From positions 1 to 64,000 of the forward strand of contig NZ_JAFBCZ010000018.1 in NCBI RefSeq assembly GCF_016907925.1: DNA of 64,000 nt. The letters are read 5' to 3'. Below, one piece after another: positions 4,226-4,863 of this stretch (the stretch's first letter is position 1; each line of letters begins with the position of its first letter). Below the pieces are notes generated by a model, which was not told where the DNA came from, did no database searches, and saw nothing but the letters and a program-made list of their open reading frames with translations. The position numbers and the translations under genes were made by a program. This stretch comes from Herpetosiphon giganteus. GTDB taxonomy: Bacteria; Chloroflexota; Chloroflexia; Chloroflexales; Herpetosiphonaceae.

Positions 4226-4863
4226 GCATTGGGGATCGGGGGCTGTAGTTGGGGTCAGGCCATTGGAGCTATGAAGTTCGGTATGACTGAGATGCATGCC
4301 CTCACCCCCAGCCCCTCTCCCACGAAAACGCGGGCGAGGGGAGCATGGGCCTCGTGGTTCCCCCAGATCATAGCCATATCATTCCTCTGTGTTAAGTGTT
4401 TGATCCACGAAGGGCACGAAGGTTAAGTTTTTTCGCCCCAAATTCCACAGATTGTTGCGATTATATTGCGTTAGCATCTCATCCTTCATCCTTCATCTTT
4501 CATAATTTCGCAACTCTGCGCCGCTGCGTTAAAACTTTTTAGCCACAGATTGTTGCGATTATATTCCGTTAGCATCTCATCCTTCATCCTTCATCCTTCA
4601 TAATTTCGCAACTCTGCGCCGCTGCGTTAAAACTTTTTAGCCACGAATTGCACGAATTCCACGAATATTTTTTCGCCACAGATTGTTGCGATTATATTCT
4701 GTTAGCATCTCATCCTTCATGATTTCGCAACTCTGCGCCGCTGCGTTAAATTTCTGCCTTTTGACTTTTGATTTTTGCCTTTTGCCCTTTGACTTCATAA
4801 TTCATCCTTCATAATTCATCCTTCATCCCTGTAATCCATGTCATAGCAATTGTCACAGCCGCA
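4226..4863. repeat. intergenic mosaic repeat island A (motif P, CACGAAGG, CCACAGATTG, CATCCTTCAT runs, TTTTGCCTTTTG runs)
   Basis: motifs shared with the islands at 6289, 38923, 45528, 53594 and 60354. Confidence 0.85.
4445..4750. repeat. three tandem direct copies of an approx 104-108 bp unit (CCACAGATTGTTGCGATTATATT..CATCCTTCAT..TTTCGCAACTCTGCGCCGCTGCGTTAAAACTTTTTAG)
   Basis: copies at 4445-4552, 4553-4640 and 4676-4750; copy 3 lacks one CATCCTTCAT; a CACGAATT spacer separates copies 2 and 3. Confidence 0.9.

Follow-up and report, generated by a model that had tools for sequence, protein, structure and literature searches.

Intergenic islands of short word arrays with a directional syntax in Herpetosiphon, and palindromes that share one of their words in other phyla

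We describe a family of repeat islands that lie between genes in a 64,000-nucleotide (nt) stretch of the Herpetosiphon giganteus genome (contig NZ_JAFBCZ010000018.1, positions 1 to 64,000), referred to here as the window. Six islands, designated A to F, were found. Their modules are nearly all short tandem arrays of 7-10-nt words, belong to one family that recurs throughout the genus, are almost entirely restricted to intergenic DNA, and follow a reproducible polarity and order. The slots that the islands occupy are conserved between species while the interiors turn over rapidly, in part through block duplications specific to single lineages, and one word also forms the arms of palindromes in several other phyla. 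With roughly even confidence, we interpret the islands as nests of small array-armed, probably selfish, non-autonomous elements that settled in fixed intergenic slots and were remodeled after arrival.

A preliminary description of the window had listed six islands with their modules. Direct reading and exact searches found all six, and every named module, at the positions given there. The accompanying statement that the six are assembled from the same modules holds for islands A-E; island F has a single module, the hairpin element motif P, in common with the others. Array-level patterns match the window 54 times, and 53 of the 54 matches are within the islands, which make up ~4% of it; in dinucleotide-preserving shuffles of the window, which provided the expectations in this paragraph, such matches are close to zero. 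For example, the doublet CRCGAAGNNCRCGAAG of the CACGAAG word was observed 12 times (expected 0.00), the TCATCCY doublet TCATCCYTCATCC 13 times (0.00), TTAACGCAGMGGCGCAG six times (0.00) and GCCACAGATT seven times (0.21). Modules occupy only 6 of the ~21 intergenic regions of at least 60 bp in the window, and single-word matches are sparse in its coding DNA.

The islands were also said to lie outside genes, and across 338 kb of Herpetosiphon DNA, to which the adjacency counts below also refer, just 5 of ~190 arrays are contained in open reading frames (ORFs). Loci beyond the window (given L numbers here) were chosen by the presence of one of the words, R/T, so that array densities outside the window are biased, and gene calls in them are crude longest-ORF calls. 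The gene contexts are as first reported: co-directional for islands A and D, convergent for B, C and F, and divergent for E. The flanking genes are ordinary and mutually unrelated (ClpS, SPFH, GT21, ABC permease, sigma-70, DegV, Mrp/ApbC, patatin, GAF-STAS, methyltransferase and LacI).

Each word was assigned a letter, with lower case for the reverse strand. Words of period 7 are G (GGGGATC), H (TCATCCY), U (TTTTGMY), Y (CMWAKAGC) and M (CTATGTT). The period is 8 for R (CTCTGCGC; with its closing sequence, R/T, CTCTGCGCC..GCGTTAAA), 9 for K (CACGAAG; CACGAAGNN) and N (CACGAATT; CACGAATTN), and 10 for Q (CACAGATT; CACAGATTNN). Module E is GATTATRTT. By direct reading of islands A-E, words K, N and Q and the complement of R have a common core, C-R-C-R-R-A-K.

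The modules had been thought to be joined in varying order and orientation. This proved incorrect, because the arrays follow a directional syntax: G, K, Q, E, heptamers, R/T. Adjacent arrays have the same orientation in 172 cases and opposite orientations in 44 (80% co-oriented), and specific neighbors are strongly ordered: G before K 7:0, K before Q 16:0, N before Q 6:0, Q before E 10:0, Q before Y 10:0, Y before R 9:1, R before N 7:1, R before M 8:0 and U before H 5:1. The other words also keep to one strand around the R/T word: with TTTAACGCAGAGG on the top strand, the counts for the two orientations are 33 versus 2 for ATCTGTG, 60 versus 11 for CTTCGTG, 28 versus 1 for the GGATGA doublet and 9 versus 0 for AATTCGTG. 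Whole islands flip as blocks: island C has the same word order on the other strand, and island B opposes a forward head to a reverse body.

The syntax defines a recurrent polar unit of ~100-130 nt, (K or N)-Q-E-heptamers-R/T. Its 5' end is a T-run with CCACAGATT words (Q), often preceded by CACGAAG or CACGAAT arrays (K or N); its interior holds E and then a variable heptamer array (H, Y, M or U); and its 3' end consists of CTCTGCGCC words closing with GCGTTAAAA. The end words are imperfect inverted copies of each other, as direct reading of TTTTAGCCACAGA against the complement of TCTGCGTTAAAA reveals (CACAGA and CGCAGA). The longest blocks common to different islands are 40-65 nt with 86-97% identity and chiefly cover the junction between the K array and TTAAGTTTTTTCGCCACAGATTG. 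The islands, their parts and the adjoining signals are as follows.

Island A, 4226-4899, plus strand: the whole ClpS-SPFH intergenic region, reading G P KK Q E HH R T Q E HHH R T NN Q E H R T UUU HHH
G array, 4231-4259, plus strand: GGGGATC-type heptamers and G-runs, directly 3' of the ClpS stop codon
Motif P singlet, 4296-4366, plus strand: CCCTCACCCCCAGCCCCTCTCCC-N-GCGGGCGAGGGG..CGTGGTTCC, an imperfect GC-rich hairpin
K array, 4402-4422, plus strand: period 9, GATC-CACGAAGGG-CACGAAGG
Tandem unit copy 1, 4445-4542, plus strand: 98 nt; Q (CCACAGATTG), E (GATTATATT), H heptamers, then R/T (CTCTGCGCCGCTGCGTTAAAAC)
Tandem unit copy 2, 4543-4640, plus strand: 98 nt, 98% identical to copy 1
N array, 4641-4675, plus strand: three copies of CACGAATTN and a T-run, inserted between copies 2 and 3
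Tandem unit copy 3, 4676-4750, plus strand: 75 nt, one H heptamer in place of three
U array, then H array, 4751-4830, plus strand: TTTTGMY five times, then TCATCCY with period 7/14
Promoter-proximal region or 5' leader, 4831-4899, plus strand: outside the repeat family, kept in all orthologs, the fixed right border of island A
Island B, 6289-6576, no strand assigned: between the convergent SPFH and GT21 genes, reading GG KKK nn t r h u Y kkkkk
Island C, 38923-39429, minus strand: between the convergent ABC permease and sigma-70 genes, reverse polarity
Intrinsic terminator of the sigma-70 gene, 39430-39470, minus strand: stem AACCCUCGCUACC/GGUGGCGGGGGUU followed by a U-run, between the stop codon and island C
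Island D, 45528-45917, plus strand: from DegV to Mrp/ApbC, reading GG KKKKK QQ E Y g H U MM HHHH
Conserved promoter/leader next to island D, 45918-46031
Island E, 53655-53873, plus strand: divergent patatin / GAF-STAS region, reading G KKK Q Y P HHHHH
Intrinsic terminator before island F, 60319-60354
Island F, 60356-60507, no strand assigned: inverted motif P doublet (60364-60405, plus; 60455-60500, minus), REPIN-like (see below)

The 98-nt repeat of island A is one such polar unit. It had been described as three tandem copies of a ~104-bp unit at 4445-4750; the tandem exists, but the unit is 98 nt long and there are two full copies and a truncated third. The 35-nt CACGAATT array parts copies 2 and 3, with resulting spacings of 98 and 133. 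Island C comprises three units, (K Q E M), (N QQ E YYY R T) and (Q Y U HHH RR T), and its only exception to reverse polarity is a plus-strand G array at 38927-38950. In island B, K arrays on opposite strands pair as a long hairpin (RNA fold of -99.5 kcal/mol, z = -3.4). The position of the G array after a stop codon in island A is repeated in islands B, C and D. The arrays at 6292-6320 and 38927-38950, directly 3' of stop codons, have four G-runs with 2-3-nt spacing (GGGGCCAGGGGCTAGGGGATCGGGG), by its letters a textbook motif for a putative G-quadruplex on the sense strand.

The islands had also been distinguished from a CRISPR array, which consists of 23-50-nt repeats and unique spacers of similar length, accompanied by cas genes. 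We agree: units of 7-10 nt follow one another head to tail, unique spacers are missing from the 98-nt unit, and the flanking genes have no cas-like domains.

The repeat family is genus-wide in Herpetosiphon. H. giganteus, H. geysericola, H. llansteffanensis, NSE202, H. aurantiacus and the metagenome-assembled genome MFD03066 each have the full set of ten word arrays and motif P; none of these modules was found in 21 kb of a more distant Herpetosiphonaceae genome (L004). The modules are therefore not confined to the window, and their density in coding DNA is low, so that a composition artifact, which either confinement or similar coding density would have suggested, is ruled out and the proposal of a dispersed intergenic family is upheld.

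Comparison of orthologous loci shows fixed slots with rapidly changing interiors. When the window was aligned by megablast with a relative of 85-91% identity, all genes aligned and the alignment broke exactly at islands C, D and E (for island C, at 38916/39419 against L001 and L002; the slot in L001 holds a shorter version). Islands A and B were compared in four close species, H. aurantiacus and one metagenome contig. The SPFH coding sequence is 95-96% identical among orthologs, with 0 gaps. Island A orthologs are 54-80% identical over the aligned part, with 20-46% gap columns, and island B orthologs 80-96% identical with 8-55% gap columns. The island A slot measures 674, 419, 646, 510 and 202 bp in five Herpetosiphon genomes; the island B slot measures 288, 503, 312, 606 and 124 bp in five species and 238 bp in the metagenome contig. 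Whole halves of the orthologous islands are missing from H. aurantiacus. The last ~70 nt upstream of the SPFH start codon are conserved in every ortholog.

Orthologs differ in several ways. Some changes are in the copy number of single words. Others are independent block duplications: 98 bp three times in H. giganteus only, 156 bp twice in NSE202 and ~237 bp twice in H. geysericola, with further block tandems of 187 bp three times in L029 and 295 bp twice in the Kiritimatiellia locus L065. The triple tandem of island A is thus a recent event specific to H. giganteus and typical of the family, not a special structure. The H. geysericola duplication in island B (L123, 4389-4892) takes in the SPFH stop codon together with the final ~22 nt of this gene's coding sequence, so it must be a local duplication; island rearrangements can extend into coding ends. 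Replacement of an island middle, bounded by shared words, distinguishes L001 from L002, whose Mrp proteins are identical. The remaining type of difference is gain or loss of motif P, which in island A is missing from the H. geysericola ortholog and differently placed in H. llansteffanensis.

Motif P is a separate element from the word-array units and fits the sequence definition of repetitive extragenic palindromic (REP) elements and of their inverted doublets, REPINs (Bertels & Rainey 2011, PMC3116915). The comparison with REP elements made in the preliminary description is therefore sound for this module: its copies are extragenic, repetitive, imperfect palindromes, and inverted doublets form hairpins. 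Motif P is ~75 nt long, CCCTCACCCC..CCCCTCTCCC-N6-9-GCGGGCGAGGGG..CGTGGTT, and its arms CCCCTCTCCC and GGGCGAGGGG pair with one mismatch. Two subtypes exist, and singlets, inverted doublets and tandem clusters (L029) occur, with copies in every sampled Herpetosiphon genome. The fetched DNA holds ~35 distinct copies (63 strand-wise matches), almost all from Herpetosiphon and all intergenic. The doublet of island F forms a long hairpin (RNA fold of -92.1 kcal/mol, z = -5.8), and inverted doublets are also present in L001, L019, L075, L082, L117 and L127. Island B of H. llansteffanensis holds a doublet that is near-identical to that of island F when the aligned arms are compared by eye; it has no counterpart in the three other close species, which indicates that motif P is mobile. 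Two superfamilies of REP carry a GTAG or CGTC tetranucleotide at one stem end (Di Nocera 2013, PMC3733652). Motif P has no conserved GTAG, and CGTC is found in some copies only, in the loop. No REP-associated tyrosine transposase (RAYT, a Y1 transposase) was found among the small sample of eight ORFs adjoining P clusters, which encode, for example, carbonic anhydrase, GNAT and ABC ATPase proteins.

The R/T word is not limited to Herpetosiphon. One genome per species was scanned with the 18-nt pattern TTTAACGCAGMGGCGCAG, which gave at least 113 stretches against ~35 expected by chance according to our estimate. At least 29 stretches come from five Herpetosiphon genomes. In this sample, TTTAAC(GCGCAGAG)n occurs in at least eight phyla: beyond Herpetosiphon, it was found in at least 14 other Chloroflexota genomes, at least 11 Verrucomicrobiota, at least six Kiritimatiellota, at least five Lentisphaerota, at least five Acidobacteriota and at least three Planctomycetota, and also in Nitrospinota, Desulfobacterota and others. 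The carrier genomes span 38-71% GC, and several have at least 3-6 loci each. Among the matches listed, 56 of 95 arrays, about two thirds, contain word copies beyond those that the pattern requires. Conservation ends at the array, with none upstream of TTTAAC or past the third or fourth word.

Many of these arrays are arms of palindromes. Of 78 copies among the matches listed outside Herpetosiphon, 27 are followed 50-280 nt downstream by an inverted CTCTGCG array, compared with 3 that have one upstream. The resulting element, TTTTAAC(GCAGAGNC)n ... (GNCTCTGC)nGTTAAAA, has a median length of 157 bp, ends in GCG-TTAAAA and has a variable center that is often itself a GC hairpin. R-armed palindromes also occur within Herpetosiphon, at L082 (z = -6.7), L015, L057 and L117. 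The R/T end of the Herpetosiphon unit is the same word array that forms both arms of cross-phylum palindromes of ~150 bp. Arrays of the Q, K, G and N types are present at loci of the Planctomycetes-Verrucomicrobia-Chlamydiae (PVC) group, Acidobacteriota or Chloroflexaceae in this sample, which was selected by R; heptamers of the H, U, Y and M types were not seen in these loci. Short tandem arrays of other kinds are denser within 400 bp of the motif, 2.3-fold in other phyla and 5-fold in Herpetosiphon. The R/T motif is not preferentially oriented with respect to flanking genes, and the kinds of intergenic region that hold it occur at background frequency, which fits insertion wherever it is tolerated. 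When the 337 ORFs located within 1.5 kb of the cross-phylum motif were compared all against all, no protein family recurred beside it, and Rfam searches of 18 loci with palindromic elements gave tRNAs only.

Locus L006, a viral or prophage contig of 59% GC (IMG/VR contig IMGVR_UViG_2510461066_000001), has (CTCTGCGCC)n-TCTGCGTTAAAA arrays at 5800-5840 and 6290-6330, immediately 5' of the start codons of minus-strand genes, and it may be that phages move such words from host to host. Loci L065 (Kiritimatiellia, 1100-1800) and L054 (Lentisphaerales, 1100-2300) have mosaic islands of their own around the shared word, with GGTTTCW heptamers, GGGATC hexamers, TTTAAC-CACGGAA arrays, five copies of GTGAGTG and the 295-bp block duplication.

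To explain the islands as nests of small elements, we propose that non-coding elements with arms of tandem word arrays settle in permissive intergenic slots and accumulate beside and inside one another. Replication slippage would then add or remove single words, and unequal recombination or slippage between neighboring units would yield tandem block duplications of 98-240 bp, such as the triple of island A. Blocks may also be replaced between islands, and a second, unrelated REP/REPIN-like hairpin element, motif P, would insert among them. Hairpins between convergent genes and pyrimidine-rich tracts before promoters would be by-products. We infer that the units are mobile, that an enzyme moves them and that they serve no function of the host. 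The preliminary description had pointed to nested elements resembling miniature inverted-repeat transposable elements (MITEs). Palindromic array-armed elements at other loci agree with this idea, but the window itself argues for it weakly, with its Q and R end words and, in island B, the K/k arms.

Several observations weigh against mobile elements as the source of the islands. A target-site duplication could not be told apart from the palindromic TTAA termini: in ends that read TTTTAAC...GTTAAAA, TTAA may have arisen by duplication or belong to the palindrome itself, and at L012, L014 and L041 the palindrome runs into the flanks. No transposase was linked to the elements among ORFs near the cross-phylum motif or the eight ORFs by P clusters. 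No clean pair of filled and empty sites was found for a whole unit, although block indels and replacements were seen. Between islands, the copies have no more than 65 nt in common (~86% identity), so no recent transposition is visible in the window. The 98-nt unit of island A forms a weak hairpin only (z of -1.3 to -1.6); a strong hairpin was rejected since the fold is not significant. Mild biases relative to genes also exist: 30 of 45 K arrays lie 3' of a gene end, and 12 of 14 U arrays lie 5' of a gene start. The tally of taxa is a sample and not a census. Finally, the exact words are kept across species and phyla, which a trans-acting factor would explain more easily, and such a factor could equally be a host regulator.

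More tentatively, we suggest an undescribed class of "array-armed palindromes" that crosses phyla and is spread by a conserved trans-acting protein that reads the word; this broader proposal is possible, and we hold it with low confidence. Each element would have a T-run/TTAAC header, followed by an 8-10-nt word of the C-R-C-R-R-A-K type in 2-5 copies, then a variable center and the array in inverted form. The class may extend over Chloroflexota, PVC phyla, Acidobacteriota, Nitrospinota and others, with Herpetosiphon as the lineage that diversified it into a ten-word lexicon with syntax. Candidates for the spreading protein would be a transposition or recombination enzyme of a new kind and a DNA-binding protein that many lineages have in common.

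The strongest rival explanation, which the preliminary description had also raised and which we nonetheless judge somewhat unlikely, is that the word arrays are binding sites for one or more nucleic-acid-binding proteins, acting on DNA (in a nucleoid or insulator role) or on RNA (S1, Csp or CsrA-like). Selection would then keep the word, and the syntax would reflect position in the transcription unit, with G and K after stop codons and U and H before promoters. Words indeed persist while array length and island content turn over, they have a common core, and R-, Q-, K- and G-type words recur across phyla that differ widely in GC content. The gene-related biases of the K and U arrays, together with H arrays that precede a gene start in 16 of 24 cases, point the same way, as do arrays that abut start codons in the viral contig L006 and in Lentisphaerales L054, and TAACTGA repeats are a precedent (MacGregor 2015, PMC4679880). 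Yet only 6 of the ~21 intergenic regions are occupied, next to functionally unrelated genes, and R and Q arrays are unbiased with respect to genes. The content of orthologous slots varies several-fold, to the point that H. aurantiacus is without whole halves, and copy numbers are not conserved. Moreover, no candidate protein co-occurs among the 337 ORFs near the motif.

Transcription-boundary devices are, in our estimation, a distinctly improbable alternative, in which the islands would supply terminating or stabilizing hairpins, C-rich Rho-loading tracts and G-run structures after stop codons. The long hairpins of islands B and F would suit this role, but islands A, C and D have no significant structure (z of -0.8, -1.1 and -0.6). 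G arrays with inverted partners directly follow stop codons in island D and L122, and pyrimidines predominate on the forward strand (C/G ratio of 1.2-2.1). However, canonical intrinsic terminators already stand between gene and island at C and F, outside the islands, and a terminator scan of 3800-6900 gave no more sites than shuffled sequence. The TTTTAAC...GTTAAAA flanks place the T-run before the stem, which is the wrong side for an intrinsic terminator, and context frequencies equal the background, with no enrichment at convergent gene ends. A promoter or terminator role of islands A and B was rejected on site counts, which equal those in shuffled sequence over 3800-6900.

It is very improbable that the islands are ordinary microsatellites that arose separately at each locus by polymerase slippage, with shared words due to coincidence or mutational bias: periods of 7-10 nt, single-unit copy differences between species and the rank of heptamers as the commonest long simple sequence repeats in prokaryotes (Mrazek 2007, according to the summary in PMC4679880) would fit, but the same ten words recur with the same order and polarity at dozens of loci in six species, the 18-nt pattern exceeds the chance estimate and is repeated within several genomes, and composite blocks of 40-65 nt are common to islands. 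The shared lexicon and syntax contradict a purely local origin, and to this extent the earlier view that the islands are not simple microsatellites is correct. It needs amendment in that most modules are arrays of period 7-10, with single-unit copy changes between species and recurrent block duplications of 98-240 bp.

The interpretation as nests of small elements invites comparison with known repeats. Heptanucleotide short tandemly repeated repetitive (STRR) sequences of cyanobacteria were reportedly described by Mazel in 1990; STRR1-3 have the words CCCCAGT, TTGGTCA and CAACAGT, none of which is among the island words. Like STRRs and long simple sequence repeats of 5-11 nt (LSSR 5-11), the islands have intergenic tandem arrays, a predominance of heptamers, several words per genome, rapid evolution and filamentous hosts with large genomes. 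In contrast, the words and the phylum differ, and the arrays are chained in a fixed syntax as ~100-nt units with inverted end words; we know of no such composite units described for STRRs. By periods of 7-10 nt and mainly intergenic location, the arrays themselves correspond to the STRR/LSSR 5-11 pattern, the latter class being that of Mrazek 2007 as summarized in PMC4679880.

TAACTGA direct repeats occur in Beggiatoaceae, Cyanobacteria and Bacteroidetes and were proposed to be sites for nucleic-acid-binding proteins in the MacGregor study cited above. They resemble the R/T word as one exact, short, tandem intergenic word found across distant phyla with no evident transfer mechanism. The Herpetosiphon word is different, however: its period is 8 and not 7, it has no preference for positions upstream of start codons, and it often forms palindrome arms.

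Small dispersed repeats of Nostoc are said to have been reported by Elhai in 2008. Similar to these and to MITEs, the elements are non-coding, 25-300 bp long, nested and located beside heptamer arrays, with inverted ends and content that varies at orthologous loci. Terminal inverted repeats on a non-coding element of 50-500 bp, as in MITEs, are seen in the R-armed elements (27 of 78 outside Herpetosiphon among the matches listed, as noted above, and L015, L057, L082 and L117 inside). Unlike MITEs, they have no demonstrated target-site duplication and no known parent transposon, and their arms are tandem word arrays instead of unique terminal inverted repeats.

As with the bacterial interspersed mosaic elements (BIMEs) and REP elements of enterobacteria, and with REPINs, the islands are extragenic, highly repeated, mosaic with other short motifs and a source of intergenic polymorphism (PMC3116915, PMC3733652), and motif P is an imperfect GC-rich palindrome with singlets, inverted doublets that form long hairpins, and tandem clusters. 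The differences are that the islands are mostly non-palindromic directional word arrays, and that P has no conserved GTAG/CGTC tag and no RAYT among the eight ORFs by its clusters. The alternating orientation typical of BIME mosaics is absent, in that 80% of adjacent arrays are co-oriented and most modules are non-palindromic.

In function and evolution, then, the islands resemble BIMEs, REPINs, the STRR/LSSR 5-11 arrays and MITEs or small dispersed repeats, and by the available tests they belong to none of these. Three characteristics appear to be new: the polar unit of chained word arrays with reproducible syntax, word arrays as palindrome arms, and the cross-phylum identity of at least one word and header. 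A literature search found no paper that prints these words or describes the islands in Herpetosiphon or other phyla, most subscription journals being outside the searchable literature.

Because the same exact words and header, and often the same layout, occur in otherwise dissimilar phyla (38-71% GC), something sequence-specific must make or keep them. Identification of this factor would bear on how very short interspersed repeats of the STRR, small dispersed repeat and TAACTGA types spread with no obvious transposase, and interest would be higher if the cross-phylum elements truly depend on a specific, still unknown protein. The syntax, with its unit ends and word order, offers a concrete handle for mobilization and binding assays in a culturable organism. 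Extrapolated from six islands per 64 kb, a 6-Mb Herpetosiphon genome could hold several hundred islands. As the fastest-evolving part of the genome, they are ready-made markers for strain typing, and they are also a cause of assembly breaks and spurious ORF calls. ORFs of 99-158 codons cross the islands at 3941-4297 (minus), 6477-6776 (plus), 38808-39113 (minus) and 39228-39704 (minus); these are almost certainly repeat artifacts, liable to automatic annotation as hypothetical proteins.

Some likenesses of the words to known signals were noted by eye. Header and first Q word together look like a DnaA box, with an exact copy (TTATCCACA) in the Kiritimatiellia locus L018 (4232, minus strand); L030 (4827, plus strand) is a further locus in this comparison, and the Herpetosiphon version is TTAGCCACA. 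Module E (GATTATGTT) contains ATTATGTT, which is like the XerD arm of dif. Both may be coincidental and neither was adopted; nor were other short matches, namely to boxA, to the attC R'/R'' cores (GTTRRRY compared with GTTAAAA), to extracytoplasmic function (ECF) or sigma-54 promoters, and to the 16S rRNA segment CGCGAAGAAC.

Searches of the window with Rfam 15 at the gathering score gave no match, and a tRNA search of it found none. Blastn of island C against PLSDB found no plasmid match, for which the low-complexity filter is possibly responsible. The highly iterated palindrome HIP1 (GCGATCGC) occurs only five times in the window, and the window SPFH and Mrp/ApbC proteins are 100% identical to H. 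giganteus entries and 94-99.7% identical to those of other Herpetosiphon species; a cyanobacterial origin was rejected given the few HIP1 sites and the grouping of window proteins with Herpetosiphon.

Elsewhere in the window, Tandem Repeats Finder reported four 18-21-bp tandems in coding regions (2842-2883, 15073-15119, 25756-25792 and 62393-62429) that are unrelated to the island words. The tandem ORFs 9896-10489 and 10532-11107, of low GC content (~42%), encode paralogous membrane-like proteins that have no Pfam match and are only 35% identical overall. The two ORFs have an exact 56-nt N-terminal identity (9935-9990 and 10565-10620) that, from its letters, resembles a patch of gene conversion. 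The minimum of the cumulative GC skew lies at ~27700-28720, where gene orientation also switches, between a DUF4388 gene and upp, from mostly minus at 6.5-28.5 kb to mostly plus at 28.7-49 kb; this point could be a replication-related landmark or a plain divergent operon boundary.

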